A DNA stretch of 64,000 bases from Alphaproteobacteria bacterium (GCA_965214705.1 OZ243972.1:3168001-3232000), one strand, 5' to 3'. Counted from the stretch's first letter, positions 5,725 through 23,792 are shown. Notes: a model not told the origin generated them from the letters alone. Numbers and translations: made by a program.

Positions 5725-5726
5725 TT

Positions 5727-5768
5727 AAGGGTTGGGCAGGCTCTCTCTCGAGAGCCTGCCCAACCCTT
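5727..5768. repeat. Perfect 19-bp-stem hairpin at the downstream end of the IS91-like element
   Basis: AAGGGTTGGGCAGGCTCTC-TCTC-GAGAGCCTGCCCAACCCTT. Confidence 0.9.
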
Positions 5769-6030: not shown

Positions 6031-7272
6031 TCACGGTTTCCCCCTGTGGGTCGGCGGCAGCGCCGGCGGGCCGCGCGTCGAGCGGGGCTCATGGCGGCGG
6101 CGGATTTCGCGGACGAGGCGCATGACGCCGCCGCAGTGGGGGCAGGCCACGGGCGCGGTGCCGATCTCGGGCTCTTCGTCGGGCTCGGCCCGAGCGCCGT
6201 CCACGCTTCCCTCGGGGGCGGCGCAGCCGAGGGCGCCGAGAGCCTGGCGTGCTCTCTCCAGCGTGCTGGCGCGGCAGCCGTTGGCGAGGATGCCGAAGTA
6301 GCGAATGCGGTGCATGCCGTCCGGCAGGACGTGCCTCAGGAAGCGGCGGATGAACTCGTCGGCGCTCACGGTGGCGATGCCGTAGCGCGGCTTTCTCTGC
6401 CCCGGCGCCTTGGGCTTTCGGTGGCGGAAGGAGACCGTCTCGCCGTCGAAGGAGACGATGCGGCTGTCGGAGATGGCGATCCTGTGCGTGTAGTGCGAGA
6501 GGTACCGGAAGACCTGCTCAGGCCCGCGGAAGGGCCGCTTGGCGTAGACCACCCAGTCCCTGGCCCGGGCGGCGGCAAGCGTGGCGTGGAACTCGCCGGG
6601 ATTGGCGAGGTGGGCGACGGTGCCGTGGAACTCCAGGTCCCCCCGGCCGTGGGCGCGGGCGAGCTCCTCGAGGAAGAGGCGGCGGAACAGGCTGCCGAGG
6701 ACCTTGACGGGGGCGAGGAAGGTGGTGCTCCCCGTCTTCCACTCGCCACTGTCTACGTCGAAGCCCGCGTTGGGCACGACCACGTGCAGGTGCGGGTGGA
6801 AGCGGAGCTTCTGATCCCAGGTATGGAGGACCGCGGTGCCGCCGATGCGCATGCCGCCGTGGCGGGGATCGGCGGCGATGGTGCGCAGGGTCTCGGCGAC
6901 GGCCCGGAAGAGGATGTCGAACACCACCCTGCGGTTGCAGAAGGCAATGGCGGCAACCTCCTTGGGCAGGGTGAAGACCACATGGAAGTAGGGCACCGGC
7001 AGGATGTCCCCGGCGCGCTCCTCGCTCCAGAGGTTGGCGGCGAGACCCTGGCAGGTGGGGCAGTGGCGGTTGCGGCAGGAGTTGAAGAGCGGATGCTCGC
7101 GCCCGCAGCCCTCGCAGGCGTACATGTGGCCGCCGAGCACGGCGGTGCGGCACGCCTCGATGGCGCCCATGACCTTGAGCCGGGCGGCGTCGATGCGCCC
7201 TTTGTGGCGCTCACGGAAAGCGGCGCCGGCGCGGCGGAAGATCTCCGCCACGCCCGCGCGTTCGGCCTCCAC
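6031..7272 (-). CDS. IS91-family rolling-circle (HUH/Y2) transposase
   Basis: Zn motif SCRNRHCPTC, HVVFTLP, HUH 'HPHLH', Y2 'YLSHY', RIRYFG. Confidence 0.93.
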   Translation of the reverse strand: MEAERAGVAEIFRRAGAAFRERHKGRIDAARLKVMGAIEACRTAVLGGHMYACEGCGREHPLFNSCRNRHCPTCQGLAANLWSEERAGDILPVPYFHVVFTLPKEVAAIAFCNRRVVFDILFRAVAETLRTIAADPRHGGMRIGGTAVLHTWDQKLRFHPHLHVVVPNAGFDVDSGEWKTGSTTFLAPVKVLGSLFRRLFLEELARAHGRGDLEFHGTVAHLANPGEFHATLAAARARDWVVYAKRPFRGPEQVFRYLSHYTHRIAISDSRIVSFDGETVSFRHRKPKAPGQRKPRYGIATVSADEFIRRFLRHVLPDGMHRIRYFGILANGCRASTLERARQALGALGCAAPEGSVDGARAEPDEEPEIGTAPVACPHCGGVMRLVREIRRRHEPRSTRGPPALPPTHRGKP

Positions 7273-7278
7273 GCGCCG

Positions 7279-8157
7279 TCAGTTGCGCAACGCTGCGAAG
7301 CCTGAGATCGGGTGGTCGAGGCCCTCGAACATCTTGCCGGTGACGCGGGCGTAGTGACGGGTCGTGTTCGCGCTTCGATGGCCGAGCATGTCCCGGATCA
7401 CCTCGATATCGCCGCCGCGCTCGAGGAGATGGGTCGCCGCCGAATGGCGCAGGCAATGGAAGGTGTAGCTGCGGTCGAGCTCGGCAATGTCGCGCGCCCT
7501 CCTGAAGGCGGCCTGCAAGGTCTCCGTTGCGATGGGCCTGTCGAGCGAGACGCCGTAGAAGAGCCAGTTCGTCGGACGCGGCCAGATGTTCCTGTAGTAG
7601 ACGCGCAAGTAGTGGATGACGATGTCCGGCAACGGTGCCATTCTCTCGGTGCCGCCTTTGCCGGAGGGGATGTGCAGCAGCTTCTTCTCCGACAGGATGT
7701 CGCCGACCTTGATGGCCAAGGTCTCGGAGATGCGGAGCCCGCCGCCATAGCCGGTGACAATGGCAGCACGGTGGCGGAGGTCGGGTGTCGCAAGGATGAG
7801 GTGCTCGACCTCCTGCTCCGACATGTAGCGCGGCAGCTTGCCGGGCTTCTTGCGGGAGCGCAGGCCGGCGACATGGTCAGGCCAGCCGAGTGTGTCGATG
7901 TAGAGGAAGTTCAGCGCGGCGAAGGAGACGTTGGTCGTGCCCGGACTGAGCCCCTTGTCGATCCGCCCCAGGTACCACTGGCGCACCTGCTCGGCGTCGA
8001 GCTCGTCCGGCGAGGCGTCGTAGTACCTGGCCAGGTTCTTGATCTCGCAGATGTAGGCCTTGGACGTGCTCGCGGCCAGATTGGCGATGCGGAGCTGCTC
8101 CTCCATGCGCTGGCGAAGAGGGGTGACGGTGTTCGTGTCGCACGCGGTCCCGGTCAT
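7279..8157 (-). CDS. Tyrosine recombinase (XerD-like integrase)
   Basis: GLRISE, GKG, HCLRHSAATHLLE, LGH...TTRHY catalytic set. Confidence 0.93.
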   Translation of the reverse strand: MTGTACDTNTVTPLRQRMEEQLRIANLAASTSKAYICEIKNLARYYDASPDELDAEQVRQWYLGRIDKGLSPGTTNVSFAALNFLYIDTLGWPDHVAGLRSRKKPGKLPRYMSEQEVEHLILATPDLRHRAAIVTGYGGGLRISETLAIKVGDILSEKKLLHIPSGKGGTERMAPLPDIVIHYLRVYYRNIWPRPTNWLFYGVSLDRPIATETLQAAFRRARDIAELDRSYTFHCLRHSAATHLLERGGDIEVIRDMLGHRSANTTRHYARVTGKMFEGLDHPISGFAALRN

Positions 8158-8477
8158 TATCGATCTCCCTGGATCGCGACGGCGCGCCGCCGGACCGATC
8201 CGGCGACGGTCCGTCGCAGGGGTCGATACTAACCACTGGTGATCGGGAGGCTGCTGGGGATCCGCCACCCGACGGGCGGAGCGCCACTGACGCAACCGGG
8301 AAGCGAACGCACAGAACAAACGGCACCCGCGACGCCTCGGAAATGAATGAACTCTACGCCGCTAACTCCGCGTAGCGGCTTCGTTCAATACGGATAAGGC
8401 TTATCCCCTTGACCCCGGTTTGACGACATCTTGTGTTTGGGTTGGCAGGGACGAGTTGTTCGTGTAATGTTCTCGCC

Positions 8478-9416
8478 ATGCCGAGCCGCTGGAAGCACGA
8501 CCGCCCGATGTCCCGCGCTGCCTTCGAGGCGCGCTTCCCCGATGAAGAGGCCTGCGCCAGACACCTCGCGGCAAAGCGTTGGCCCGACGGCTTCGTTTGC
8601 CCCGCTTGCGGCCATGACAAGGGTTGGGAGTTGAAGCGTCGCAGGGCGAGTTGGGAATGTGCGGGCTGCGGCAAGGAGACGTCGGTGACCGCGGGCACGA
8701 TCATGCATCGCAGCCACCTGCCGCTGAAGACCTGGTTCACCGCCATCCATATGGTGACCAGCCATTCGAACGGCATCTCCGCCCTGCAACTCCAGGCCCA
8801 GCTCGGGCTCGGCAGCTACAAGAGTGCGTGGCTGCTGCTGCACAAGCTGCGTCGCGCCATGGTCGATCCCGACCGCAGCCTGCTTGAGGATCTGGTTGAG
8901 ATCGACGAAGCCTCGTTGCCGCAGCGCACCGCGCAAGACCCGCCCACCGGCGGGCAAGGCCGCAGCGCGCAAGGCAAGATGCTCATCGCCGGAGCGGTCG
9001 AGCTGTCTCCCGAGGGTGAGCCGCGCCGCATCCGCCTCGCGCCGATCGTGGATTACTCCGCGCTCAGCCTGCACGCCTTCGTTGCCGCCACCTCGGCGTC
9101 GGGCGCGCTGGTGATCACCGACGGTTGGAGCGGCTATCCCGGCCTGTCCGGGCACGACCATGAGGCCAGGATCGTCGGCGACACGCCCGCCCATCTCGTG
9201 CTGAAGTGGACCCATCGCGTCTTCTCGAACCTGAAACGCTGGGCGCTCGGCACCTTTCACGGCCTGCGCCGCGCCCATTTGCGCCGTTACCTCGACGAGT
9301 TCGTCTTCCGTTGGAACCGACGCCGCCACACCGACGCCGCCTTCGACACCCTGCTCGGCATCGGCGCCGGCCTTCAACCCGCCAGCTACCGCGACTTCGT
9401 CGAACAACGCGCCTGA
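8478..9416 (+). CDS. IS1595-family transposase
   Basis: Zn ribbon CPAC..CAGC, VEIDE, ITDGW, YLDEFVFRWNRR. Confidence 0.93.
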   Translation: MPSRWKHDRPMSRAAFEARFPDEEACARHLAAKRWPDGFVCPACGHDKGWELKRRRASWECAGCGKETSVTAGTIMHRSHLPLKTWFTAIHMVTSHSNGISALQLQAQLGLGSYKSAWLLLHKLRRAMVDPDRSLLEDLVEIDEASLPQRTAQDPPTGGQGRSAQGKMLIAGAVELSPEGEPRRIRLAPIVDYSALSLHAFVAATSASGALVITDGWSGYPGLSGHDHEARIVGDTPAHLVLKWTHRVFSNLKRWALGTFHGLRRAHLRRYLDEFVFRWNRRRHTDAAFDTLLGIGAGLQPASYRDFVEQRA

Positions 9417-9701
9417 TCCCACCGGCCGGTCAACACCGTGCCGCAGCCAGCCATTCCGGCTGTCTCGGAGTCATTATACCGAACTCCGGCACCGCGTGAC
9501 GGGGCCGGGCAGCGCTCTCGCCAGTCCAAGATATCACGCGTGCGACGCGCGCCGATGCCGGCGACGATCAACATCTTGCGTCACCGGAACCAAGGGGAGA
9601 AGCCTTTACCTCAATTCGACGAAATCTGTTGAATGATCTTTCAAGAATTCGTCCAATTTTCCGGTGTAGTTCACATCACCATTTTTCTGATATTTCTCCC
9701 A

Positions 9702-9868
9702 AAGGCTTATCCCCTTACATCCGGCTTCTCCATATGTGGGGTGCCGGATCGCTGGGCACTTTACGGGCAACCCATTGAGACACGGAAGGAACTGCGACCG
9801 TGTCGGATACCGCCGCCGAGGTGGCCGGTACAACATGTTGGGGAACCGGAGCCAGAGGGATAAGCCTT
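9702..9868. mobile_element. IS1595-derived MITE (~167 bp)
   Basis: AAGGCTTATCCCCTTACATCCGG ... CCGGAGCCAGAGGGATAAGCCTT with no transposase. Confidence 0.8.
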
Positions 9869-9899
9869 ATACGGATTATCAGACAGTGTGTCGAGCAGC

Positions 9900-9993: not shown

Positions 9994-11031
9994 CTACTTC
10001 TTCAGGCGGGTCCACATGGTGTCGTAGACCTCCTGGGTCGCCTGATCGCACACCGCGACGAATGTGCCGGCGGGTGCATCGGCAGGCGGAACGGACTCGG
10101 GCTGGCTGGCCAGTTCCGGATCGAGATGCGGGGTCACGCCCTCGACGCCCGCCGCATAGCGCGCGAAGTTGGTGACCGCGGCGATGTTCTCCGGCTCCAG
10201 CAGGAAGTCCATGAACTTGATCGCGCTGGCCCGGTTGGGCGCGTCCTTCAGCAGCACGACGTTGTCCATCCAGACGACATAGCCCTGGCGCGGATAGGCG
10301 TATTCGATGTTGGCGCCCTCCGCCCGCGCCTTGGCGCCGAAGCCGTTCCAGATCATCCCCACGGCGGCATCGCCGGAGACCAGCACGTCCTTGGCGCCGT
10401 CCGAGTTGAAGGAGGCCCAGTGCGGCTTGGCCGCCTGCAGCAGCGCATCGAGCTGCTTGAGCTGCTCGCGGTCGTTCGAGCACTGCGGAATGCCCAGATG
10501 CAGGGCGGCCAGTAGCATGACCTCACCTTGGGAATCGAGGACGTTGATCTTGCCCTTCAGCTCGTCCGGCGGGTCATAGACGATGCCGGTGTCGTTGATG
10601 TCGCCTTGATAGACGTCCCGGTTCACCGAGAAGCTGGTCGAACCCCACTGATAGGGGATCGAGTGCATCCGGCCCGGATCGAAGGGCACGTCCACCCATT
10701 GCGGCTCGATGTTGCCCCGATTGGCGAGCTCGCCCTCGGCAATGGTGTCGAGCATGCCTTCGCCGATCATGATCTCGACCATGTAGTCGCCCGGCACGGC
10801 CACATCGTAGGAGCCGAGCTTGCCGGCCTTGAGCGAGGCCAGCATCGCTTCGTTGGAATCGAAGGTGTCCATGGTCACCTCGATCCCGGTCTCGGCCGCG
10901 AACTTGTCGAGCAGCTCCTGCGGGATGTACTCGAACCAGTGGTAGATCGAGAGCTTCTCCTGCGCGTGAGCCGCGCTCACGACAAACGTCAGTGCTAACG
11001 CCGCTACTCCGGCTTTGAGTAAGGTCCGCAT
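9994..11031 (-). CDS. potD: Polyamine ABC transporter substrate-binding protein (PotD/PotF family)
   Basis: Signal peptide; WFEYIP, FDSNE, PYQWG, WMDN motifs. Confidence 0.88.
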   Translation of the reverse strand: MRTLLKAGVAALALTFVVSAAHAQEKLSIYHWFEYIPQELLDKFAAETGIEVTMDTFDSNEAMLASLKAGKLGSYDVAVPGDYMVEIMIGEGMLDTIAEGELANRGNIEPQWVDVPFDPGRMHSIPYQWGSTSFSVNRDVYQGDINDTGIVYDPPDELKGKINVLDSQGEVMLLAALHLGIPQCSNDREQLKQLDALLQAAKPHWASFNSDGAKDVLVSGDAAVGMIWNGFGAKARAEGANIEYAYPRQGYVVWMDNVVLLKDAPNRASAIKFMDFLLEPENIAAVTNFARYAAGVEGVTPHLDPELASQPESVPPADAPAGTFVAVCDQATQEVYDTMWTRLKK

Positions 11032-11066: not shown

Positions 11067-11888
11067 TTACGCCTCCGCCTTCGTTCCAGGCCGCCCGTAC
11101 CGACTGATGAAATAGGACAGCGTGACGATCAGGATCGAGACGGAGAGCATGATGGTGCTGAGCGCCATGATGTCGGGTTTGATGCCCTGCTTGACGGCTC
11201 CGAAGATCGCCGTGGGCAGGGTTTCGATCCCGGCGCCCTTGATGAAATTGGTGATGATGAAATCGTCCAGCGAGATGATGAACGCCAACAGAAAGCCCGC
11301 GAGAATTCCGGGCGCCATCAATGGCATGAGGACGCGCAGGAACGCCTGGAACCGGCTCGCGTACAAGTCCTGCGCGGCCTCTTCGTAACTGCCGTCGATC
11401 CCCTGCAGGCGGGCCGCAATCGGCAGGTACGCGAAGGGAATACAGAAGACGATATGCGCCACGAGTATCGAGAGATAACCGAGCGTGAAGCCGATGGCGC
11501 TGAAGAACACCAGCGTCGCCACGGCCGTGACGATCTCCGGCACCATGATCGGCATGCTGATGAGCGCGAGGTTCAGCGCCTTCCCTTTGAAAGCCCCGCC
11601 CCGCACCATCGCCACCGCGGCGGCCGTGGCGATGATGGTGCTGGCGACGGCGGCGCTGAGAGCGATGGTGAGCGAATTCCAGGCGGCGTCCTTGAACTTC
11701 GCCGATTCCGGCCCGGTGAAGATTTCCATGTACCAGCGGAAGCTGAACCCGCCCCAGCGGGTGATCGAGAGCGAGTCGTTGAAGCTGTAGACCATCACCA
11801 CCAGGAGCGGCGCGTAGAGCACCACCAGGCAGAGGATCGTGATCGGCAGGAAGCCGGGGTAGCGTTTGATGTTGATTCTTTGCCGCAT
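11067..11888 (-). CDS. potC: Polyamine ABC permease (PotC-like)
   Basis: [12 protein letters not shown] loop, ISLDDF. Confidence 0.88.
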
Positions 11889-11889
11889 C

Positions 11890-12816
11890 TCAGGCGGCCT
11901 GCGCGCTGCGCCGGGCTTGCCGGCGCGCATAGATGAAGAGCGCGATGAGCACGAGGGAGAGCAGGATCATCGATGCCGCCGCGCCGAAGGGCCAGTTGCC
12001 GGCGTTGCCCTTGAACTGCTCCTCGATGAGCGAGCCGATCAGGAAGTTCTTGGCGCCGCCGAGCAGGTCGGGCGCGAGGAAGGCGCCGAGGCTCGGCACG
12101 AAGACCAGGATGCACCCGGCCACGATGCCGGGCCACACGATCGGCAGGATGACCTTGTACAGGATCGTCCAGCGATTGGCGTAGAGGTCGGCGGCGGCTT
12201 CGGACAGCGCAAAGTCGTAGCGCTCCACCGAGGCATAGATGGGCAGCACCATGAAGGGCAGGTACGAGTAGAACAGGCCGAGCTGCACCGCGAAATCGGT
12301 GTTGATGAGCGCAATGGGCTCGCTGATGACGCCCAGGCCCATCAGGGCTTCGTTGAGCGGGCCGTTGTCCCGGATGAGGAACTTCATCGAGACCGTGCGG
12401 ATCAGCAGGTTCACCCAGTAGGGGACGGTCACCAGGAAGAGCCACATGGAGCGCGTCGCGGGCGAGCGCGTCGCGATGAAGTAGGCGGTCGGGAAGCCGA
12501 TGATCAGGCAGAGCAACGTGGCAACGGCAGCCTGGATGATCGAGCGCACGAAGATGACGATATAGGTCCACTCGATCTGCGGCGGCTCGTCGCCGAAGAG
12601 GCCGCGGTCGAAGATGAACTGGTCGTAAGCCGCGAGCGAGAACTCCCAGATCACGCCGCCCCGGAACTCCTTCGTCAGGAAGGAGTAAGCCAGCATCATC
12701 AGCACCGGCGCCACGAGGAAGAAGCCGATGATCACCCAGGTCGGAATCAGCAACGGGGTGCGCACCGGCGCGAAGGTGCGGGAGACCGCACGCGTGCTGG
12801 CGAGCTCGCCGGCCAT
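11890..12816 (-). CDS. potB: Polyamine ABC permease (PotB-like)
   Basis: [24 protein letters not shown]. Confidence 0.88.
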
Positions 12817-13904
12817 CAGTCCACCAGGAGCCGGGCGCCGCCGGGCGCGATGGCGAGACCGACCCGGTCTCCGTTGCGGAAGGATGTCGTGTCGCTGCCG
12901 ACGTTCTGCGCCCGCACCAGCACGTCCGGTCCTTCGTCCAGCCGCACGCCATACTGGATGTCGGTGCCGAGATAGACGATCTGGTCCACCACGCCGGTGA
13001 GGCCGCTGTCGCACGCCGCCTCGGGCACGAGCGAGAGCCGTTCCGGGCGGATCAGCACGTGGGCGGTGGCGCCGTCCTGCGGCGGCGTCCCCGCGGCCTC
13101 ACAGGGAAAGACCGCGCCGTTGGGCAGGCGGCTATGCCAGGCACCGTCCGGCCCGCGCTGCACGGTCACGTCGAGGACGTTGGTCTCGCCGATGAAGTCG
13201 GCCACGAAGCGGTCGTTGGGCGCCTCGTAGATTTCGTGCGGCGTGCCCACCTGCCGGATCTCGCCCGCCGACATGACGGCGATGCGGTCCGACATCGTCA
13301 GCGCCTCCTCCTGGTCGTGGGTGACGAAGACGAAGGTGATGCCGGTTTCCTCCTGAATCTGCTTCAGCTCGATGCGCATCGCCTGGCGGAGCTTGAGGTC
13401 GAGCGCGGACAGCGGCTCGTCGAGCAGGAGCACCTTGGGCCGGGGCGCCATGGCGCGGGCGAGCGCGACCCGCTGCTGCTGCCCGCCGGAAAGCTGCGCC
13501 GGCCTGCGCGCCGCGAGGTCGCCGAGCTTCACCAGGTCGAGAATGCGGCCGGTCTGGTCCTCGATATCGGCCTTGCTCCAGCCGAGCCTGCGCATGCCGA
13601 AGGCCACGTTCTCCGCCACCGTCATGTGCGGAAAGAGCGCGTAGTGCTGAAAGACCGTGTTGATCGGGCGCCGGTTGGGGGGCAGTGTCCCGATGTCCTC
13701 GCCGTAGAGCAGGATTTCGCCTTCGGTGATCTCCTCGAAGCCCGCGATCAGGCGGAGCAGGGTGGTCTTGCCGCAGCCGGACGGGCCGAGCAGGGTGAAG
13801 AACTCGTTGTCCCGAATCGTCAGGCTCACGCCGGCGAGCGCCGTCACCGCGCCGAAGCGCTTGACGGCGTTGCGCACGTCGATGGCGATGTCTTGCTCGG
13901 ACAA
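12816..13904 (-). CDS. potA: Polyamine ABC ATPase (PotA-like)
   Basis: GPSGCGKT, LSGGQQQR, LLDEP, TOBE-like tail. Confidence 0.9.
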   Translation of the reverse strand: MSEQDIAIDVRNAVKRFGAVTALAGVSLTIRDNEFFTLLGPSGCGKTTLLRLIAGFEEITEGEILLYGEDIGTLPPNRRPINTVFQHYALFPHMTVAENVAFGMRRLGWSKADIEDQTGRILDLVKLGDLAARRPAQLSGGQQQRVALARAMAPRPKVLLLDEPLSALDLKLRQAMRIELKQIQEETGITFVFVTHDQEEALTMSDRIAVMSAGEIRQVGTPHEIYEAPNDRFVADFIGETNVLDVTVQRGPDGAWHSRLPNGAVFPCEAAGTPPQDGATAHVLIRPERLSLVPEAACDSGLTGVVDQIVYLGTDIQYGVRLDEGPDVLVRAQNVGSDTTSFRNGDRVGLAIAPGGARLLVD

Positions 13905-13934
13905 CGGCGCCTCCCTTCGCCTGTCAATCCGCGC

Positions 13935-14873
13935 CTAGTGGAGAGGGATGTTCGGCCCGGTCAGGGTCTTGAGCGCGTAGTCGGGCTCATCCACTCTGGA
14001 GAAGCCGACCCTGGACAACCACTCGTCCGTGGAGAGCCCGAGGATCTCCGTCTCCGACGTCAAGTTGGTGAACGCGCCGGAGGGCAGGGTCACGTAGGGG
14101 GCGCAGGCCAGCGCACAGCCCACGTGATTCTTCGGAATGTGGGACGCCTTCCAGCCGATGTAGATCTTCTTGTAGCGCGCGCCCTGATTCTCGCCGCACA
14201 GATACGCCGCATAGGCGATCCTGTTGAGCCTGTTGTCGAGCCTGGTTCTCACCGACTCTTCCTCGTCTCCCGCGAGGTGCATGATTCCCGTGTCTTCCAT
14301 GAAGAGGCACGCGTGATTGTCGCGATCTTCCGCAATCGCAAAGCCCAGCGCGCACCAGATCCACATGTTGCCGTCCGAGACCATGCTCGTGCGGTACTTC
14401 TCCGCACAAACGACCATGGCCCCTTCCTGCGGCGGGAAGTGCCGTTCGTCGGCAACGCCGAAGAGTTGCCGGGTCGCATCGCGCAACGGAATGAGGGAGT
14501 AAATCGGAATGTTCTCGATGCGCCCGACGGGATACGTCTTGCCGATGCGGGAATCGACGGCCAGGTCGTAGCCCCAGATCGCCCCATTCACGCCGCTGAA
14601 CGACGACGCCTGCAGCATATTAACCTGGCCGATATAGGAATCGTTACATTCGGCGCGGTCGTAGGACACGATTTCGGCCATGCCTTGATCCAAATCCTCC
14701 TCGAACGGAAATCCGGGAAACTGTTCCAGGTTTACGGCGCCTGTCGAAAGCAGGATGGTCGAAATGTAGGACCCCGGCTGACCCGTCGCCGTCGGCTCCT
14801 GATACCCCCCGCAGCTGCTCGCCGTCGTGTTGCGACAATTCCGGACGATCTCTTCTATACGAGCGTCAGCCAT
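13935..14873 (-). CDS. hdcA: Pyruvoyl-dependent histidine decarboxylase proenzyme
   Basis: IVSYDRAE..YIGQVNMLQASSFSG (Ser-Ser self-cleavage site), FMED, APYV, as in Lactobacillus 30a HDC. Confidence 0.85.
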   Translation of the reverse strand: MADARIEEIVRNCRNTTASSCGGYQEPTATGQPGSYISTILLSTGAVNLEQFPGFPFEEDLDQGMAEIVSYDRAECNDSYIGQVNMLQASSFSGVNGAIWGYDLAVDSRIGKTYPVGRIENIPIYSLIPLRDATRQLFGVADERHFPPQEGAMVVCAEKYRTSMVSDGNMWIWCALGFAIAEDRDNHACLFMEDTGIMHLAGDEEESVRTRLDNRLNRIAYAAYLCGENQGARYKKIYIGWKASHIPKNHVGCALACAPYVTLPSGAFTNLTSETEILGLSTDEWLSRVGFSRVDEPDYALKTLTGPNIPLH

Positions 14874-14885
14874 CGCCTCGTTCCT

Positions 14886-15647
14886 TCAGGCCGTGAATCC
14901 GAGCCGCCTGCCGAGATCGTCAGCGGCCTCGGCCAGTTTCTGCTTGATGCGGGTGGGCTCCATGGGGCGGAAGCGGTCCGCGAGCCCGGTGATGCCGACC
15001 GAGTAGAGGACGTAGCCGCCGTTCACGCGGATCGGGTGGCCGTAGCTCAGCACACCGGCGTCCAGCTCGTTGTCGCAGACCGCCACGCCGTCCGCGCGGA
15101 TCTGCTCGAGCTCGTCGAGGATGTCGGCCTCCTCCACCTTGGTCTTGTCCGTGAAGCGCGGGCGCGGGCGCGACAGGTAGCGGGCCACGAACTCGTCGTC
15201 CTGAAACGCCAGGATCGCCTTGCCGCTGGCCGCCGCGTGCAACGGCAGCTGCCGGCCCGGCTGCACGAAGGCGCGGTCCGAGCCCGAGGGCTGCTCCATC
15301 AGCACGGACTCGGCGAAGTCGCCGTTGAGCCGGGCCAGATGGGCGGTCTCGCCGAACTCCGCCACGAGCCCGTCGAGGACGGATTTCGCCAGCCCCGCAT
15401 AGCCCGCCCGGTCCATGGTCGTGTGCAGCAGGGTCTGCAGGCGCGGCCCGGTCACGTAGCTCTTGGTGCCGGGCACGCTCCGCAGCATGTCGAGGTCCAC
15501 GAGCCCGCGAATCAGGCGATGCGCCGTCCCCGGCTGCAGGTCCATCTCCCGCGCGATCTCCGAGAGCGTCACGCCGGTCCTGGCGCGCGCGACCGTTTCC
15601 AGCACCCGGATGTACCGGCCCAGCGGCTTGTCGTTGCTATCGCTCAT
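14886..15647 (-). CDS. IclR-family transcriptional regulator
   Basis: N-terminal HTH (LSEIAREM..TAHRLI), LPLHAAASGKAILA. Confidence 0.9.
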   Translation of the reverse strand: MSDSNDKPLGRYIRVLETVARARTGVTLSEIAREMDLQPGTAHRLIRGLVDLDMLRSVPGTKSYVTGPRLQTLLHTTMDRAGYAGLAKSVLDGLVAEFGETAHLARLNGDFAESVLMEQPSGSDRAFVQPGRQLPLHAAASGKAILAFQDDEFVARYLSRPRPRFTDKTKVEEADILDELEQIRADGVAVCDNELDAGVLSYGHPIRVNGGYVLYSVGITGLADRFRPMEPTRIKQKLAEAADDLGRRLGFTA

Positions 15648-15667: not shown

Positions 15668-17989
15668 TCAGGAGACATCGCGCTGCTGCAGTGCCGTGAC
15701 CACGCGCTCCGGCGTGATCGGCATCTCGAACACGCGCACGCCGATGGCATCGGCGACCGCGTTGGCGATGGCGGGTGCGACGGCGGTCATGGCCGGCTCG
15801 CCGATGCCCTTGGCGCCGAAGGGGCCGACGCCGCTGCGGGATTCGAGGATGATGCACTCGACGTTGGGCATATCCATCGCCGTCGGCATCAGGTATTCGC
15901 TGAAGGACGGCGTGACCAGCCGGCCCTCCTCGTAGAGCATCTCCTCGCTGAGCGCGTAGCCCTGCCCGTTCTGCGCGCCGCCCTGGATCTGGCCCTCGAC
16001 CGCCGCCGGGTTGATGCACTGGCCGACATCGTGGGCGGCGACGCTCTTCAGCACCTCGACCTCGCCGGTCTCCACGTCGACCGAGACCTCGACCGCGTGC
16101 GCGCCGTAGGCGTAGTCCGGGTGGGCCTGGCCCTGCCCGGTCTCGGGATCGAGAAAGTCGCCGAAGGGCGCGCGGAAGATCGCGAGCTCCGAACGGTGGA
16201 TGCCCTCGGCCGCGCAGGTGCGCACCAGGTCCACCAGCGGCATGGTCTTTTCCGGGTTGTCGATGACGAAGACCTCGCTGAAGGCCATGTCGATCTCGTC
16301 CGGCGTGACGCCGAATTCTTGGGCCGCGCGTTCGGCGAGGCGGGCGCGCAGCCCCTCGGCCGCCTGCTTGGCGGCGTTGCCGGTCATGTAGAGCGCGCGC
16401 GTCGCCGTGGTGGTGCCGGCGAGCGGGGTCACGGCGGAATCGCTGTTGTAGATGACGACGTTGTCGAGGGTGACGCCCAGCACCTCCACCGCGATCTGGC
16501 CGAGCGCCGAGATCTGGCCGGCGCCGATGTCGGTGACGCCGGAGCGCACCACCACGGTGCCGTCCATCTCGACGCCGACCCAGGCCTCCGAGGTGTCGTG
16601 CAGGAAGGTGAGGCGGCCATAGCTCTGCTGGTAGCAGGCGAGGCCGCGGCCGGTGCGGATCGGCCCTTCCGCCGGCGTGGGCTCGCCCAGCCCGGCCCAG
16701 GCCTTCTCGGCGCACTGCTCGGTCCAGATCGCGCTCGGCGGCACGAAGCCCGTGGACATGGGCTCGCCGGTCTTGAGGAAGTTCCGGCGCCGGAGCTCCA
16801 GGCGGTCGATGCCGAGCGTGTTGGCGATCTCGTCCATCTGCTGCTCGTAGGCCGCGCAGGCCTGCAATGCGCCGAAGCCGCGAAAGGCACTCGTGTACAT
16901 GTTGTTGGTCGCGACCGCCCGGGCGAAGACGTTGAGGTTGTCGACCCGGTAGGGGCCGGGTGCCGCCACCAGCGCGTAAAGGATGACGTAGGGGCTGAGG
17001 AACACGTAGGCGCCGGCATCGGCGATCATGTTCACGTCGAGCGCCGTGATCTTGCCCTCCTTCGTGACCCCGGTGCGGTAGGTCAGGATGAAGGGGTGGC
17101 GCTTGCCGTGGCCCACGAAGGAATCCTCGCGCGAGTATTCCAGCCGCACCGGCCGCCCGGTCTGCTTGGCGAGCAGCGCGAGATAGACCTCGACGGTCAG
17201 GTCCTCCTTGCCGCCGAAGCCGCCGCCCACCAGCGCGCCGCGCACGCGCACCTTGTTGTGCGGCACGCCGAGGGCGTCCGCGATGGGCCGGAAGTGCTCG
17301 ATCACCTGGGTCGAGACCCGGATGTTGACCACGTCGTTCTCGTCCACCCAGGCGAGGCCGACCTCCGGCTCCAGGAAGGCGTGCTCCTGGAACGGCGTCC
17401 TGTAGGTGTTCTCGACGATCAGGTCGGCCCTGGCGAAGCCCGCCTCGACATCGCCCTTCTTGATCTTGCGCTCGGCGACGATATTGTCTTCGCCGTAGAC
17501 CAGCGGCGCGCCGGGCTTCAGCGCCTCCAGGGTGTCGTAGACGCCGGGGATCGGCTCCAGCTCGAACTCGATCAGCTCTGCCGCGTGGTCGGCGATGTCG
17601 CGGGTCTCCGCCGCGATCAGCGCCAGCGGCTCGCCGAAGTAGCGCACCCGGTCCCTCACCAGAATCGGCTGGTCGGTATCGAGGCGCTTCTGCCCGGTCT
17701 GGCCGGGGATGTCGGTAGCGGCCGTGCGGTCGGCGAGGTCGTCGGCGGTGAGCACGCAGGCGACGCCCCGGAGCGCCCGTGCCTTCGAGACATCGAGGCG
17801 CACGAGCCGTGCGCTCGCGATATCGGCGCGCAGCACCCGCATGTGCAGCATGTTCGGCATCACGTAATCGCCGGCGTAGGGGGTGCGGCCGGTAACCTTG
17901 CCCGGCGCATCGGTGCGGGTCAGCGGCTTGCCGACCTGCCGGAACTGGACGTTGGCCAGCGTCCCCGGATCGATGTCGGTGTGGGTCAT
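15668..17989 (-). CDS. Xanthine-dehydrogenase-family molybdopterin subunit
   Basis: GGGFGGK, AFRGFG, DIGAG, AKGIGEP. Confidence 0.92.
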   Translation of the reverse strand: MTHTDIDPGTLANVQFRQVGKPLTRTDAPGKVTGRTPYAGDYVMPNMLHMRVLRADIASARLVRLDVSKARALRGVACVLTADDLADRTAATDIPGQTGQKRLDTDQPILVRDRVRYFGEPLALIAAETRDIADHAAELIEFELEPIPGVYDTLEALKPGAPLVYGEDNIVAERKIKKGDVEAGFARADLIVENTYRTPFQEHAFLEPEVGLAWVDENDVVNIRVSTQVIEHFRPIADALGVPHNKVRVRGALVGGGFGGKEDLTVEVYLALLAKQTGRPVRLEYSREDSFVGHGKRHPFILTYRTGVTKEGKITALDVNMIADAGAYVFLSPYVILYALVAAPGPYRVDNLNVFARAVATNNMYTSAFRGFGALQACAAYEQQMDEIANTLGIDRLELRRRNFLKTGEPMSTGFVPPSAIWTEQCAEKAWAGLGEPTPAEGPIRTGRGLACYQQSYGRLTFLHDTSEAWVGVEMDGTVVVRSGVTDIGAGQISALGQIAVEVLGVTLDNVVIYNSDSAVTPLAGTTTATRALYMTGNAAKQAAEGLRARLAERAAQEFGVTPDEIDMAFSEVFVIDNPEKTMPLVDLVRTCAAEGIHRSELAIFRAPFGDFLDPETGQGQAHPDYAYGAHAVEVSVDVETGEVEVLKSVAAHDVGQCINPAAVEGQIQGGAQNGQGYALSEEMLYEEGRLVTPSFSEYLMPTAMDMPNVECIILESRSGVGPFGAKGIGEPAMTAVAPAIANAVADAIGVRVFEMPITPERVVTALQQRDVS

Positions 17990-18483
17990 GGTGCACCTCC
18001 CTCGGCGCGCATGTCGTCGGCCGCGTCGGCGATGGCCTCGAAAATCTTGGTGTAGCCGGTGCAGCGGCAGAGGTTGCCGCTCAGCCCTAGGCGAATGTCC
18101 TCTTCGCTCGGCTCCGGGTGCTCGTCGATGATCGCCTTGGCTGCGATGATGATGCCCGGAATGCAGTAGCCGCATTGCGCGGCGCCGCCGTCGGCGAACG
18201 CCTTCTGCAGCGGATGCGGCGAGTCCAGGTCGCCGAGGCCGGAGACGGTGGTGATCTCCTTGCCCGCCGCCATCCAGGCCAGCGTCAGGCAACTGTCCAC
18301 GGCCATGCCGTCGAGCAGCACGGCGCAGGCGCCGCAGTCGCCCTTCTCGCAGCCGCACTTCACCTCCATGTGGCCGAGGTGGCGCAGCGCCTCCAGCAGT
18401 GTGCGATGGGCCGGGAAGCGCCCTTCCTCCTCGCGGCCGTTGATGCGAAGCGTAATGATCCGTTCTTCAGGCATGAGCGTCAC
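17986..18483 (-). CDS. Mo-hydroxylase 2Fe-2S subunit
   Basis: GCEKGDCGAC, QCGYC, NLCRCTGY. Confidence 0.93.
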   Translation of the reverse strand: MTLMPEERIITLRINGREEEGRFPAHRTLLEALRHLGHMEVKCGCEKGDCGACAVLLDGMAVDSCLTLAWMAAGKEITTVSGLGDLDSPHPLQKAFADGGAAQCGYCIPGIIIAAKAIIDEHPEPSEEDIRLGLSGNLCRCTGYTKIFEAIADAADDMRAEGGAP

Positions 18484-18487
18484 TCCC

Positions 18488-19354
18488 TCAGGCCAGCCGG
18501 TCCCACGCCTGGGTCACCAGGCGCCGGGTCAGGGCTTCGACCGTGTGGCGGCGGTAGCCGGCGGAGGCCCGGATGTCGTCGATGGGCGTGCACGTACTCG
18601 CCGCCGCTTCGGCCGCCGCGTCGATCAGCGCTGGCGTCAGCGTCTGGCCTTCGAGCACCGCCTCCGCCTCCTTGACGCGGCGCACGACGGGCGCGACGGA
18701 CGCGAGCGCGATCCGCGCCCTGGTGCAGGTGCCGTCCGCCACCGACAGCGCCACCGCCACGCCGGTGACGGTGATGGCATCGCCCTTGCGCCGCGCCAGC
18801 TTGTAGAAGGTGTTCGCCGAGTTCTCCGGCAGCCGCGGCCATGAAATCCGGGTGATCAGCTCGTCCGGCCGGCGCGCATCCTGCTTGTAGCCGAGGTAGT
18901 AGTCGTCCAGCGCCAGCGTGCGCGTGCCGGATACGCTGGCCAGTTCCAACTCGGCGTCGAGCACGAGCAGCGGCGGCACCAGGTCCGCCGCCGGCGAGCC
19001 GCTCGCAATGTTGCCGGCGACCGTCCCGGTGTTGCGCACCATCAGGCCGCCGAAGAGGCGCGCGGCCTCGATCAGCGAAGGCGCTTCCCGTGCGATCTCC
19101 GGCGAGCGCAGCAGGTCGCTCACCGTGGTGCGCCCGCCGATGGAGATACGCTCCGGCCCGAACTCCATGCCGAGCAGCTCGTCCACCTCGCCAAGGCCCA
19201 CCATCCGGTCCGGCCGCTCGCGCTTCGCGCGAATGTCGACGATCAGGTTCGTGCCGCCCGCGATGGGCAGCACGGTCTCGCCGCCGCCGTTCGCCAGGGC
19301 CGCCAGGGCGCCGTCGAGATCGGTCGGAATGTCCAATTGAAACGGTGCGTACAT
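18488..19354 (-). CDS. Mo-hydroxylase FAD subunit
   Basis: IAGGTNL, VRNTGTVAGN, PIDDIRASAGYRR. Confidence 0.92.
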   Translation of the reverse strand: MYAPFQLDIPTDLDGALAALANGGGETVLPIAGGTNLIVDIRAKRERPDRMVGLGEVDELLGMEFGPERISIGGRTTVSDLLRSPEIAREAPSLIEAARLFGGLMVRNTGTVAGNIASGSPAADLVPPLLVLDAELELASVSGTRTLALDDYYLGYKQDARRPDELITRISWPRLPENSANTFYKLARRKGDAITVTGVAVALSVADGTCTRARIALASVAPVVRRVKEAEAVLEGQTLTPALIDAAAEAAASTCTPIDDIRASAGYRRHTVEALTRRLVTQAWDRLA

Positions 19355-19376
19355 CCTGACGCCTCCCGCTATTGCC

Positions 19377-20159
19377 TCACACGTCCCAGCCGCCGTCGAC
19401 CGTGATGGCCTGGCCGGTGATCTGGCGGCTGTCCTCGCTCGCCATGAACAGCACGGCGTTGGCCACGTCCTGGCAGGTGGTGACACGCTTCAGGCACATC
19501 TCCTGAACGTATTCGTCGTAGACCTCGTCGATGGTCCAGCCGCGCACGCGGGCTTTCTCTTCGCAGAGCTTCTGCATGCGCGGCGTCTCGACGATGCCGG
19601 GGCAGACCGCGTTGACGTTGACGTTGTACTTGCCGACCTCCAGCGCGACCGTGCGCGTGATGCCGCGCACCGCCCACTTCGACGCGCTGTAGGCTGTCCG
19701 CATGGCGTAGCCGCGCAGGCCCGAGGTGCCGCCGATGTTGACGATCTTGCCGCTCTTCTGCGCGATCATGGTCGGCACCACGTGCTTGATGGGCAGGAAG
19801 GTGCCGATCTCGTTGGCCCTGATGACGTAGTCGAAGTCGGCCACGTCGATGTCCTGCACCGGCGTCTCGATGGGCCCGGTGACGCCCGCGATGTTGACCA
19901 GGATGTCGATGCGCCCGTCGAAGGCCTCAAGGGCCTTGTCGACCACGGCCTTGACCTCGGCATCTTCGGTCACGTCGCAGGCCACGACGTGGGCCTCGCG
20001 CCCGAGCGCGCGCACGTCCGCAGCGACCTGCTCGAGCGGCTGGGTGTCGCGGGCGGTCAGCACGACATCGGCGCCCTCGCGCGCGAGTGTCGTCGTGATG
20101 GCCGCGCCCATGCCCTTCGCGGCGCCGGTGACGATCGCCTTCTTGCCGTCCACTTTCAC
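19377..20159 (-). CDS. SDR-family oxidoreductase
   Basis: TGAAKGMG, YSASK, VDGG. Confidence 0.92.
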   Translation of the reverse strand: MKVDGKKAIVTGAAKGMGAAITTTLAREGADVVLTARDTQPLEQVAADVRALGREAHVVACDVTEDAEVKAVVDKALEAFDGRIDILVNIAGVTGPIETPVQDIDVADFDYVIRANEIGTFLPIKHVVPTMIAQKSGKIVNIGGTSGLRGYAMRTAYSASKWAVRGITRTVALEVGKYNVNVNAVCPGIVETPRMQKLCEEKARVRGWTIDEVYDEYVQEMCLKRVTTCQDVANAVLFMASEDSRQITGQAITVDGGWDV

Positions 20160-20184: not shown

Positions 20185-21780
20185 TCATTGGCCTCTCGTC
20201 TCGGGCTGCCCGTAACCGCCGCCGCCGCAACTCTCGACAATCACCACGTCGTCCCTGTCGAGGCGCAGGTTCGCCTTGCCCGGCATGTCCTCCCGGCGGC
20301 CGTCGGCGTGCGCGATGGTCACGCGGAAGGGCGCGCCGTCTTCGCCTCCTTGCAGGCCGTAAGGCGGCACCACACGCCGCTCGAACATCGAGGTCACCGA
20401 CATGTCGTCGGTGAGCACCCGGTAGGCGCGGTGCAGACCCTCGCCGCCCTGCTGCCGGCCAGCGCCGCCCGAGCCCTGGCGCAGGCGCTGGCACTCGATG
20501 CGGATCGGGAACTCGGCCTCCACCACCTCGGCCGGCGTGTTCATCACGTTGGACATGTGCACGCGCACCACCGGCGCGCCGTCGCGGTCGTGCCGCGCGC
20601 CTTCGCCGCCGCCGTGGACCTCGTAGAGCGTGGTCCAGGCGCCGTCCGCCCGCCTGCCGCCGAACAGCACGAGGCCCGACGTGGTCGGCCCGCCGGCGGA
20701 GATGCGCTCGGGCCCCACGGCTTCGAAGGCCTTGAACACGGCATCGGCGATCCGCTGCGAGGTCTCGTGATTGCCGCCCACCACGGGGCTCTCCGGGCCT
20801 GGATCGAGCAGGGAGCCGGGCCGGGTCACGATCTCCAGCGGCCGGTAGCAGCCGCCGCTCGGCTGGATCTCGGGGCCGAACAGGGTCTTCACCACGTAGA
20901 AGACCGAGGCCGCGGCGATGAAGGGCGTGGTGTTCACCGGCCCCCGCGCCGCGTCGTCGGTTTCGGAGAAGTCGAAGCGCGCGCCGTCACTTGCGATGGT
21001 GACGCGCACACGAACGGCGACCGGCCCGCCGCCGCCGGCATCGTCGTCGAGCCAGTCCGCGCCTTCGTAGGTGCCGTCAGGAATCGCGGCGAGGGCCGCG
21101 CGCATCTGCGCCTCGGCCCGGTCGTGGATCGCGCCGATGGCGGCCAATACTGTCTCCCGCCCGTGCTCCGCGCAGATGTGCTGCACGCGCTCGTCTGCGG
21201 CCCGGCTGGCGGCGACCTGCGCCAGGATGTCGCCCTCGCGCTCGTCGGCGCCCCGCACGTTGGCGCAGATCATGTCGAGCTTCTCGCGGTCGGGGCCGGC
21301 GGCGGTGAAGAGGCGGAAGGGCGGGATGCGCAGGCCTTCCTGCCAGGCGTCGGTGGCGCCGGCGACGTAGCTGCCGGGCACAGCGCCGCCGATATCCGCC
21401 CAGTGCGCGAGGCTCGCCGCGAAGGCCACGATGGAGCCATCCACGAAGATCGGCCGGATCGCCTTCACATCGGGCAGGTGGTTGCCGCCGACCTCGGGCA
21501 GATTGAGGAACCAGACATCGCCCGGTTCCAGCCTTTCCCTGGGCACCCGCTTCAGGAACTCGCGCACGGTGAAGCTCATCACCCCCATGTGCATGGGGAT
21601 GTCGCGGCCCTGGGCGATGAGGTGGCCGTCGGCATCGGTCAGCGCCGAGGAGAGATCGCCGGCCTCGCGCAGCAGCGGCGAGCGGGCCGAGCGCATGACC
21701 ACGAGCGACATCTCCTCCGCCGTCGCCGACAACGCATGGCGGATGACCTCGAGGGTCACCGGGTCCACGGCGCGGCTCAC
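20185..21780 (-). CDS. Hydantoinase B / oxoprolinase family protein
   Basis: DPVTLEV, GGNHLPD, HWADIGG, GGGGYG. Confidence 0.92.
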   Translation of the reverse strand: MSRAVDPVTLEVIRHALSATAEEMSLVVMRSARSPLLREAGDLSSALTDADGHLIAQGRDIPMHMGVMSFTVREFLKRVPRERLEPGDVWFLNLPEVGGNHLPDVKAIRPIFVDGSIVAFAASLAHWADIGGAVPGSYVAGATDAWQEGLRIPPFRLFTAAGPDREKLDMICANVRGADEREGDILAQVAASRAADERVQHICAEHGRETVLAAIGAIHDRAEAQMRAALAAIPDGTYEGADWLDDDAGGGGPVAVRVRVTIASDGARFDFSETDDAARGPVNTTPFIAAASVFYVVKTLFGPEIQPSGGCYRPLEIVTRPGSLLDPGPESPVVGGNHETSQRIADAVFKAFEAVGPERISAGGPTTSGLVLFGGRRADGAWTTLYEVHGGGEGARHDRDGAPVVRVHMSNVMNTPAEVVEAEFPIRIECQRLRQGSGGAGRQQGGEGLHRAYRVLTDDMSVTSMFERRVVPPYGLQGGEDGAPFRVTIAHADGRREDMPGKANLRLDRDDVVIVESCGGGGYGQPETRGQ

Positions 21781-23792
21781 GGGGCGGCTCCGGTAGCGAT
21801 GTGGAGGTGGCCAGCATCGTCGGCGGTGAGCGTGGCGCCGGGCGGCACGACCACGGTCGACCACGCATCGTCGACGATGACCGGCCCATCCAGCGAACTA
21901 TCCGGGCTCAGGCCCGCGCGGTCGTAGCGCGGCGTCGGCACCGATCCGCCGGAATCGAAGGTGCAGGGCTGCGTCTTGGTGGGGGAGGGCGGCTCGTTCG
22001 CCTTGGTCGCAGGGGCACGAACCTCGCCGTTGCGGGGCGCCGCGACGCGCATCCGGATCGAGACCAGCTCCCACGGCTCCTCCGTGGCGAAGCCGTAGAG
22101 CACCCGGTGGCGCTCCATGAAGGTGCGGCCCAGCTCCAGCGGGTCGTCGAGCGCCGCATCCGCGATCTCGATGGCGTAGCTCTGGCCGCTGTAGCGGACC
22201 GACGCCACTTCCTCGACCGTGAGCGTTGCGTCCTCGTGGCCGGCCGCCGAGAGCGGCGCGACGAGGGTCGCGCGGAGCTCCCGCCGCACGCCGTCCACGC
22301 GCGCCTGATCCCAGGCCTCTGCGGCCATGCGCAGCGTGCGCTGCTGCGCGTAGCTCATCTCCGCGCCGACGCAGCCCAATGCCGAGAACATGCTGGAATG
22401 GGCGGGGACCACCACCGTGCCGATGGAGAAGGCGCGGGCCAGCGCCACGGCGTGCATGGGCCCCGCGCCGCCGAAGGCGAGCAGCGTGCAGGTGCGTCCG
22501 TCGACGCCGCGCTCCACCGTGACCCGGCGCAGCGCTCGCAGCATCGCCGCGTTGGCCACCCTGGCCACGCCCAGAGCCGCAGCCTCCGGCGTCATGCCCA
22601 TGGCCGTACCGAGCGGCGCGATCACGTCGTGGGCCGCGCGCGCATCCAGGTGCACGTCGCCGCCCAGCACGCGGTCAGCGTCCATGTAGCCGAGCGCGAG
22701 GTTGGCGTCGGTCACGGTGGGCCGGTTTCCACCCTTGGCGTAGCAGGCGGGTCCGGGGATGGCGCCGGCGCTCTCCGGCCCCACCATGAGCGAGCCGTGA
22801 TCGAGCCGGGCAATGGAGCCGCCGCCCGCCCCGATGGACTCCACCGCCACCATGGGCTGGCGCAGGGGCCGCCCGCCGAGGGAGCGGTCGCTCGCGATCT
22901 GCGCCGCGCCGCCCAGGATCAGGCAGACATCGGTGGTGGTGCCGCCCATGTCGAAGCTGATGGCGCGTTCGATTCCCAGCGCGCGGGCCATGCGGCCGGC
23001 GGCAGCGACGCCGGCGGCGGGGCCCGAGGCGGCGAGCCCGAGGGGCAGGTCTCGGAGCGCCGCGGGCGAGGCCATGCCGCCGGCGGAGTGGAAGAGGTGC
23101 AGCCGGGAGGCCTCCGGTTTCGCCGCTTCCAGATCGTCCATGTACGCGGCGGCCAGCGGCATGACGCCGGCGCTCAGCGCCGTGGTCGCCGTCCGCTCGT
23201 ACTCGCGGGCCTCGGGATTGACCCGGTGCGAGAGCGCGACGAAGGGAAAGCGCGCGCGCAGCCGCGCGCCCAAGGCCTCCTCGTGGGCGGGGTTGGCGTA
23301 GGAATGCAGCAGCGAGACGGCGACCGCCTCGGCATCGCTCGCAGCGACGCGTCCGATCGCCTCCTCCACCGAGTCCGGGTCCAGCGCGGTCATGACCCGG
23401 CCGTCGTGGTCGAGCCGCTCGGTCACCTCGAAGCGGCGTTCGGCCGGCACCTGGGGTGTGAGCTTCGGCGGCAGGTCTAGCCGGTAGAGGTGGCGCCGGT
23501 TCTGGCGCCCGATGGCGAGCGTGTCCGAGAAGCCGCGCGTGGCGATCAGCGCGACCTTCGCGTGTGCACCCTGGATGATGGCGTTGGTGACGATGGTGGT
23601 GCCGTGGATCAGGTCGTCCACGTCCGCCCATTGGAGATCGACCGCGCCGAGCGCCGCCACCAGGCCCGCGATGCGGTCGTCGGTGCGGGAGGGGACCTTC
23701 GCGGCTCTCACCTCGCCGCGCGCCCGGTGATGGGCGATCACGTCGGTAAACGTGCCGCCGACATCGATACCGACTTGCCATCCCTTCGGCAC
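21777..23792 (-). CDS. Hydantoinase A / oxoprolinase family protein (ATP-binding)
   Basis: DVGGTFTD, SGPAAG, DMGGTTTD, GAGGGS, FGGAGPMH. Confidence 0.92.
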   Translation of the reverse strand: MPKGWQVGIDVGGTFTDVIAHHRARGEVRAAKVPSRTDDRIAGLVAALGAVDLQWADVDDLIHGTTIVTNAIIQGAHAKVALIATRGFSDTLAIGRQNRRHLYRLDLPPKLTPQVPAERRFEVTERLDHDGRVMTALDPDSVEEAIGRVAASDAEAVAVSLLHSYANPAHEEALGARLRARFPFVALSHRVNPEAREYERTATTALSAGVMPLAAAYMDDLEAAKPEASRLHLFHSAGGMASPAALRDLPLGLAASGPAAGVAAAGRMARALGIERAISFDMGGTTTDVCLILGGAAQIASDRSLGGRPLRQPMVAVESIGAGGGSIARLDHGSLMVGPESAGAIPGPACYAKGGNRPTVTDANLALGYMDADRVLGGDVHLDARAAHDVIAPLGTAMGMTPEAAALGVARVANAAMLRALRRVTVERGVDGRTCTLLAFGGAGPMHAVALARAFSIGTVVVPAHSSMFSALGCVGAEMSYAQQRTLRMAAEAWDQARVDGVRRELRATLVAPLSAAGHEDATLTVEEVASVRYSGQSYAIEIADAALDDPLELGRTFMERHRVLYGFATEEPWELVSIRMRVAAPRNGEVRAPATKANEPPSPTKTQPCTFDSGGSVPTPRYDRAGLSPDSSLDGPVIVDDAWSTVVVPPGATLTADDAGHLHIATGAAP

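Follow-up and report, generated by a model that had tools for sequence, protein, structure and literature searches.

A pyruvoyl-type histidine decarboxylase family gene in an alphaproteobacterial catabolic operon with a PotABCD-type importer

A gene of the pyruvoyl-type histidine decarboxylase family (HDC) was located within a catabolic operon that also encodes a PotABCD-type importer, in a 64,000-nucleotide stretch of alphaproteobacterial DNA (the window). We lean somewhat towards a reading in which this single 12-gene operon, together with its importer, would serve the conversion of histidine to histamine and the dehydrogenase-led catabolism of the latter. Pyruvoyl HDCs have been studied almost only as exporter-coupled histamine producers, in the context of food spoilage, acid resistance and gut immunology. 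The wiring is the opposite here: the gene belongs to a catabolic operon that also encodes an importer and, among sister species, a histamine dehydrogenase. If the proposed route is true, it would define decarboxylase-first histidine catabolism in bacteria without Hut, and it would give a physiological context to histamine dehydrogenases, so far isolated enzymes used in sensors. Candidates for imidazole-ring degradation would then be the molybdenum hydroxylase and the ATP-dependent lactamase, and for histamine binding the PotD-family protein. The cluster would be a new arrangement of known parts.

The operon comprises twelve minus-strand genes running from 23792 down to 9994, separated by gaps of at most 35 nt. 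A simple scan of 9400-16000 detected no promoter-like or terminator-like sites. Gene order and profile matches bore out the original prediction that the HDC gene precedes a PotABCD-type importer within a catabolic operon. The features of the region, in the order of transcription, are as follows.

21777..23792, minus strand: hydantoinase A-family subunit (nearest named model caprolactamase alpha, below cut-off)
20185..21864, minus strand: hydantoinase B/oxoprolinase-family subunit (nearest named model caprolactamase beta, below cut-off)
19377..20150, minus strand: short-chain dehydrogenase (start approximate)
18488..19360, minus strand: molybdenum hydroxylase FAD subunit (start approximate)
17986..18483, minus strand: molybdenum hydroxylase 2Fe-2S subunit
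15668..17992, minus strand: molybdenum hydroxylase large subunit, xanthine dehydrogenase family (PF02738, PF20256, PF01315; under every equivalog cut-off)
14886..15647, minus strand: IclR-family regulator, 253 aa (PF09339 and PF01614; ATG at 15647)
14874..14904, minus strand: direct repeat, first copy, consisting of the iclR 3' end, its stop and the HDC ribosome-binding site
13935..14873, minus strand: pyruvoyl-type histidine decarboxylase family proenzyme (HDC), 312 aa, ATG start (PF02329)
14601..14606, minus strand: Ser90-Ser91 codons, predicted self-cleavage site, aligned to Ser81-Ser82 of solved HdcA
13908..13934, minus strand: direct repeat, second copy, a non-coding degenerate iclR 3' end and ribosome-binding site between the HDC stop and potA
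12816..13904, minus strand: PotA-type ABC ATPase, TTG start (TIGR01187, 379 bits, above the cut-off of 355.6)
11890..12852, minus strand: PotB-type permease (PF00528; start approximate; stop-free in-frame translation)
11067..11930, minus strand: PotC-type permease (profile matches)
9994..11031, minus strand: PotD-type periplasmic binding protein (PotD model, 206 bits, below the cut-off of 582)
1166..9899, no strand assigned: transposase/integrase block of 8.7 kb after potD (Pfam; absent from the closest relative, L014)

The HDC protein matched the PF02329 profile (histidine carboxylase PI chain) with 156.2 bits (cut-off 25), above the curated threshold, and its residues 19-292 align to profile positions 18-292 of 294. 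Against TIGR00541, the NCBIfam HdcA equivalog, it reached 152.9 bits, below the cut-off of 346.65. By these profile scores, HDC is best classed as a PF02329 family member and not as an HdcA equivalog. Because the score lies so far under the equivalog cut-off, the identity of the substrate is not assured. The same cut-off was passed by only two of 114 family representatives, P0184 (581 bits) and P0167 (460 bits), which calls for caution in taking a metagenomic pyruvoyl HDC gene automatically for a histamine secretor. The alpha and beta chains of solved Lactobacillus HdcA (1pya, 1hq6) matched HDC with E-values of 2.4e-22 and 2e-3.

The serinolysis site of the solved enzyme, Ser81-Ser82, is present in HDC as a Ser-Ser pair and is identical in P0184 and P0167. 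Ser91 is conserved in 119 of 122 rows of the family alignment and is predicted to become the pyruvoyl group upon cleavage. Nine residues of solved HdcA (I59, Y62, D63, S81, S82, F83, K155, F195 and E197), whose catalytic and substrate roles we take to be those given in the HdcA literature, were mapped onto HDC, where their counterparts are I68, Y71, D72, S90, S91, F92, K159, F191 and E193. All nine are the same as in the equivalog-level representatives P0184 and P0167. In this alignment, all the residues by which the solved enzyme holds the imidazole ring and the carboxylate (Asp63, Ser81, Glu197, Tyr62, Ile59 and Phe195) are conserved. The motifs on which the assignment to pyruvoyl-type HDC had been based were all recovered, with IVSYD at 68, ASSF at 89, CAEK at 156, FMED at 191 and APY at 258. 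HDC shares Pfam family, length class, cleavage site and all nine mapped residues with the HdcA of Lactobacillus saerimneri 30a and other Firmicutes (1PYA, 1HQ6). However, it is only about 29-33% identical to the equivalog-level representatives, falls into a separate clade, and its gene shares a catabolic operon with an ABC importer rather than adjoining an HdcP-type antiporter.

The importer is the only transporter of the operon. The PDB PotD sequence matched the PotD homologue with an E-value of 6e-58, and 9 of 12 ligand-contact residues are conserved, the exceptions being T35 to F, S83 to G and D168 to S; the contact residues were matched to the chain by letter and number only. The PotD homologue may be regarded as a candidate histamine binder. 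Among the operon genes and the flanking ORFs scanned, no match to the AA_permease family, and hence no amino-acid permease or antiporter, was detected, in agreement with the expectation that an HdcP-type antiporter would be missing. In a classical hdc locus, hdcA is accompanied by an hdcP-type antiporter and often by hdcB and hisS. In a sponge metatranscriptome (X20), contigs of 86-90% identity fell on the HDC gene. One of them covers 14802-15023, bridging the iclR-HDC junction; the contigs stem from a relative and may reflect DNA carry-over, and we treat them as a hint of expression only. Upstream of the operon, a second three-subunit molybdenum hydroxylase set is encoded at 26429-30771 on the minus strand, its large subunit being about 29% identical to the first. 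A crotonyl-CoA carboxylase/reductase gene (24071-25357; TIGR01751, 544 bits, above cut-off) lies between the two molybdenum sets.

A link to histamine catabolism comes from relatives; those with a name are metagenome-derived genomes of uncultured Alphaproteobacteria or Rhodospirillales. Synteny was compared in 17 rows, namely the window, the genome G003 and 15 loci. Of the 16 rows extending beyond potD, nine (G003, L020, L022, L023, L024, L025, L026, L046 and L047) have potD followed by a gene for a 706-aa protein that matches the histamine dehydrogenases 6de6 (893 bits) and 3k30 (882 bits) with an E-value of 1e-267; trimethylamine dehydrogenase reached only 535 bits. In L026 this gene lies directly between potD and HDC. 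No dehydrogenase gene follows potD in the seven rows of the window's clade. At the level of genomes, 15 of the 16 HDC-bearing members of the genus carry a histamine-dehydrogenase homologue, the exception being G001 (92% complete, 460 contigs). In the window's own genome it is found at G000:C1:1247069-1249135 (880 bits to 6de6). The window's clade and G012 carry their dehydrogenase elsewhere in the genome, as a type 75% identical to the in-cluster one, and the other genomes have the in-cluster type only. G012 holds the 75%-identical type, yet neither the cluster nor HDC. Four dehydrogenase loci in other genera of the order contain no pot, iclR or hyu genes.

The cluster dehydrogenase matches the enzymes of Nocardioides simplex (3K30) and Rhizobium sp. 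4-9 (6DE6) over its full length. In the alignment it conserves the FMN-linking Cys35, the Tyr176-His179-Asp270 triad and the Fe-S cysteines. Eight residues have been proposed to bind histamine, Gln65, Ile74, Phe77, Glu79, Asn115, Tyr181, Trp267 and Asp358 (PMC10180351). Six of them are conserved, and the cluster enzyme differs from both solved enzymes at the other two, with Asn115 replaced by His and Tyr181 by Leu. In the Rhizobium enzyme, substitution at the Tyr181 position was not tolerated (PMC10180351).

In the route that we favour, HDC would process itself and, as a pyruvoyl-dependent enzyme, would make histamine from intracellular histidine. Histamine would stay in the cell, without export, and would be oxidised by the histamine dehydrogenase to imidazole acetaldehyde, which would then be degraded further. 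Candidates for the later steps are the three-subunit molybdenum hydroxylase, the short-chain dehydrogenase and the ATP-dependent hydantoinase-family lactamase. The molybdenum enzyme and the lactamase might attack the ring, roles which chemistry alone suggests. The PotABCD-type importer would bring external histamine in, and the IclR regulator would control the whole operon. HDC could then be an add-on by which a cluster for histamine utilisation would consume histidine as well, in a lineage mostly without Hut. Among the points against a catabolic route, making and then destroying histamine would cost the carboxyl group with no obvious gain over Hut, the dehydrogenase sits outside the cluster in the window's clade (7 loci), and homologues in this dehydrogenase family act on other amines. 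A bolder version, which we hold to be tentative and rather doubtful, would have the sponge-associated genus mineralise both histidine and histamine by a complete, so far undescribed and oxygenase-free route in place of Hut. Here, the decarboxylase and the dehydrogenase would be joined by molybdenum-dependent ring hydroxylation with water-derived oxygen, the lactamase would open the cyclic amide so formed, and a PotD-family protein would have evolved to bind histamine. Host signalling and catabolism had both been put forward as purposes of the gene; of these, catabolism gains from the histamine dehydrogenase encoded in the same cluster in relatives, whereas host signalling gains nothing.

The distribution of the Hut pathway is compatible with a decarboxylase-first route, although the pattern is suggestive and not clean. 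Urocanase was absent from the search of the window's genome (98.5% complete), in which HutH gave no match at cut-off either. Across the genus, urocanase was found in 3 of 21 genomes, one of them without HDC (G003) and two with it (G006 and G007). Neither urocanase nor HDC was found in G012, G015 and G016. Clean complementarity between HDC and Hut in the genus is thus contradicted in both directions, by the two genomes that have both and the three that have neither.

Catabolism of amino acids that begins with a decarboxylase is known for arginine, which is converted via agmatine to putrescine, and for lysine, which is converted to cadaverine. These routes follow the same logic as the one proposed here, decarboxylation first and amine oxidation thereafter. 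To our knowledge, such a decarboxylase-first catabolism has not been described for histidine. In open-access full text we found no report that links a histamine dehydrogenase or an ABC importer with a histidine decarboxylase in one locus. The nearest known system by task is the Hin pathway of Pseudomonas putida U and P. aeruginosa, which leads from histamine via imidazole acetaldehyde and imidazole acetate to central metabolism (PMC8231116). It shares with the HDC cluster the proposed overall task of histamine breakdown. Hin, however, proceeds through a permease, an aminotransferase, an NAD aldehyde dehydrogenase and an oxygenase-based ring attack, is controlled in LysR-type fashion and lacks a decarboxylase (PMC8231116). 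The HDC cluster, in contrast, has a flavin/Fe-S dehydrogenase, a molybdenum hydroxylase, a hydantoinase-family lactamase, an IclR regulator and an ABC importer, and both Hin reports describe enzymes different from these (PMC8231116, PMC6467879).

The enzymes of the cluster might instead act on another compound. HDC could decarboxylate a histidine derivative or another amino acid, and the neighbouring dehydrogenase would then oxidise the corresponding amine. Both proteins offer grounds for this reading: HDC scores far under the equivalog cut-off, the family tree sets its clade apart from HdcA, 112 of the 114 family representatives are uncharacterised by the equivalog criterion, and two pocket residues of the dehydrogenase are unlike those of the solved enzymes. 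Nevertheless, the residues that would hold the imidazole ring and the carboxylate are all conserved in HDC, and the two characterised histamine dehydrogenases are, by a wide margin, the best matches of the dehydrogenase. We consider a different substrate unlikely.

The family tree places the genus clade with P0022, its nearest outgroup (68% identity), and with a group at 47-51% identity, one sequence of which takes its name from a Theionarchaea genome. The clade formed by these is fully supported and stands apart from the HdcA clade. The PF02329 family as a whole is small: clustering at 50% identity leaves 282 groups among 1.84 billion representatives. The premise that this enzyme class belongs to Gram-positives proved dated, as pyruvoyl HDCs are reported in six phyla including Proteobacteria (PMC8465708), and HdcA equivalogs make up only the two representatives named above.

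How distant homologues are embedded was assessed in a metagenome scan that returned 80 loci, one in the genus clade and 79 distant. Recurrent neighbours were clustered by BLAST and one member per group was scanned in Pfam. An amino-acid permease is adjacent in 22 of the 79 distant loci, a Ser/Thr kinase with TPR repeats occurs in 15, an Orn/Lys/Arg decarboxylase in 14 and a pyruvoyl arginine decarboxylase in 7. DUF885 and peptidase genes lie beside the HDC homologue in a few. The numbers for permease and decarboxylases reproduce the picture drawn in PMC8465708, of pyruvoyl HDC and antiporter modules and of systems with two decarboxylases and one transporter, in Proteobacteria too. The genus clade contains the same enzyme family without the partners named there; it has a regulator, an importer and oxidative enzymes instead. 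Because the distant loci fit these published decarboxylase-antiporter modules, the catabolic setting of the genus clade is an exception within the family. A family-wide link between HDC and histamine dehydrogenase was rejected, since none of the 79 distant loci encodes a histamine-dehydrogenase homologue within the locus DNA, many of these loci being short. Some distant homologues, as noted for L068 (9032-12030), L108 (4227-5870) and L049 (6586-7986), adjoin genes for DUF885, serine carboxypeptidase S10, peptidase C69 or phospholipase-B-like proteins.

These neighbourhoods bear on whether histamine might be made for export, as a signal to a sponge host or for proton consumption, the position of the gene in a catabolic operon being incidental. 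The catalytic residues of HDC are those of histamine-forming HdcA, relatives of the window stretch occur in sponge metagenomes, and the dehydrogenase has left the operon in the window's clade. Histamine from symbionts has moreover been proposed as a sponge signal, though in connection with PLP-type enzymes (PMC10570526). Export is nonetheless hard to reconcile with an operon that has no antiporter or permease, compared with the 22 of 79 distant loci in which one adjoins, and whose sole transporter is an ABC importer. A histamine-dehydrogenase homologue in 15 of 16 HDC-bearing genomes, adjoining HDC itself in L026, argues in the same direction. We judge production for export to be quite improbable, and return to histamine catabolism as the preferred reading.

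HDC is no newcomer to the genus. It was found in 15 of 20 other species, with 82-98% identity and mostly in the same slot, and in 16 of 21 genomes when the window's is included. HDC was detected neither in 28 genomes covering 13 further genera of the order nor in 20 genomes of other genera in a first sample, and PF02329 had no match in 400 other sampled genomes of the class. The gene is under strong purifying selection, the median pairwise dN/dS being 0.093 (120 pairs), compared with 0.12-0.19 for six neighbour genes. Its divergence parallels that of its neighbours.

The lower GC content ascribed to HDC was found in comparison with iclR and potA (0.61 versus 0.70 and 0.69), but potC (0.62) and potD (0.64) are nearly as low. 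In the clades of the window and of L024, GC3 of HDC amounts to 0.69-0.81. In L020, L022, L023, L026 and L046 it is neighbour-like, at 0.89-0.93. Because GC3 resembles that of the neighbours in these five loci, the low GC of HDC is lineage-specific and no mark of recent arrival. The HDC DNA tree pairs the window's clade with the L024 clade (85/82), whereas the cluster tree pairs it with L020, L022 and L023 (95/95); the two low-GC3 clades may attract each other in the HDC tree, and we do not take the conflict as a sign of transfer. It was also noted that HDC GC3 differs by about 0.15 between clades (L024, L025, L047 and the window's clade versus L020, L022, L023, L026 and L046), with neighbours constant. 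The GC3 split and the tree conflict could reflect an exchange of alleles between members of the genus or an artefact of composition.

At the junctions, the predicted spacing was exact. The iclR stop (14886-14888) and the HDC start at 14873 are 12 nt apart, and the HDC stop (13935-13937) is 30 nt from the TTG start of potA at 13904. The degenerate copy of the iclR 3' end was likewise recovered, with a local alignment score of 13 that 3 of 5000 random same-length locus segments attained and that is inflated, part of the match being ribosome-binding-site-like sequence. The repeat also directly follows the HDC stop in most relatives (0/5000 in L016, 10/5000 in L014, about 3% in L024, L020 and L022); in L046, L018 and L027 it was below significance in the random-segment test. 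Because a copy of coding sequence sits in a non-coding spacer, the repeat argues that HDC probably once inserted into the iclR-potA junction. In L024, L025 and L047 the HDC-potA spacer holds the repeat copy, then a GTG with a few codons resembling the potA start, and then a GC-rich stretch resembling a hairpin, before the actual ribosome-binding site of potA. This spacer looks like the relic of a duplicated potA 5' end.

The order iclR-HDC-potA is kept in 15 of the 17 rows. Relatives with an empty iclR-potA junction, for which the original prediction had suggested looking, were found in G003 and L026 (from G018). G003, a 100% complete genome, has the whole cluster and HDC nowhere, with an iclR-potA gap of 73 nt. 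In L026 the gap is 21 nt and HDC is placed after potD and one further gene. Because this HDC adjoins the dehydrogenase after potD, HDC holds two different slots in one cluster. The junction is occupied in four of five deep lineages of the cluster tree, which is unrooted, and the empty G003 and the relocated L026 are single tips. Because of the occupied junction in these four lineages, the simplest account is an old gain with one relocation and one loss. The cluster tree has no outgroup, however, and the state of either tip could be ancestral, or could be the product of recombination between the repeat copies. Two diverged cluster copies were noted in G002, at C2:160000-179999 (L046) and on C7 (L023), with HDC copies 86% and 88% identical to that of the window; G002 has an estimated 7% contamination and may be a mixed bin rather than a case of duplication.

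The claim that HDC is an acquired gene therefore stands in part. The acquisition was not recent, given the presence in 15 of 20 species, the parallel divergence and the low dN/dS, and conservation within the genus comes close to the vertical conservation across the lineage that had been named as speaking against it. An old gain is still likely, because HDC is confined to this genus within the order. Recent horizontal transfer was rejected in view of conservation, synteny, dN/dS and the ameliorated GC3 in five loci. That HDC is a recently transferred passenger, a foreign low-GC gene that came to lie between iclR and potA and plays no part in the operon, might be read from its GC and GC3 below those of the flanking genes, the duplicated target-like sequence, the two relatives with an empty junction and the restriction to one genus, but it is already contradicted by the conservation and selection data just given, including the neighbour-like GC3 of five loci, and no mobile-element gene adjoins HDC, which makes it highly improbable.

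The 8.7-kb block at 1166-9899 contains two IS4-like DDE transposases, an IS91-type Y2 transposase, a tyrosine integrase and an IS1595 transposase, and it lies between potD and a gene for a thiamine-pyrophosphate enzyme. This is the site at which nine relatives carry the histamine dehydrogenase gene. The genome of the window, G000, has a size of 7.9 Mb with an estimated contamination of 8.7%, compared with 2.8-6.3 Mb in other species of the genus; its size and the IS block suggest IS expansion or some assembly redundancy. G000 further encodes eight full-length or near-full-length homologues from the histamine/trimethylamine dehydrogenase family, with 42-75% identity to the cluster enzyme; a TAG codon interrupts one of the eight. 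This set points to a broad amine oxidation capacity.
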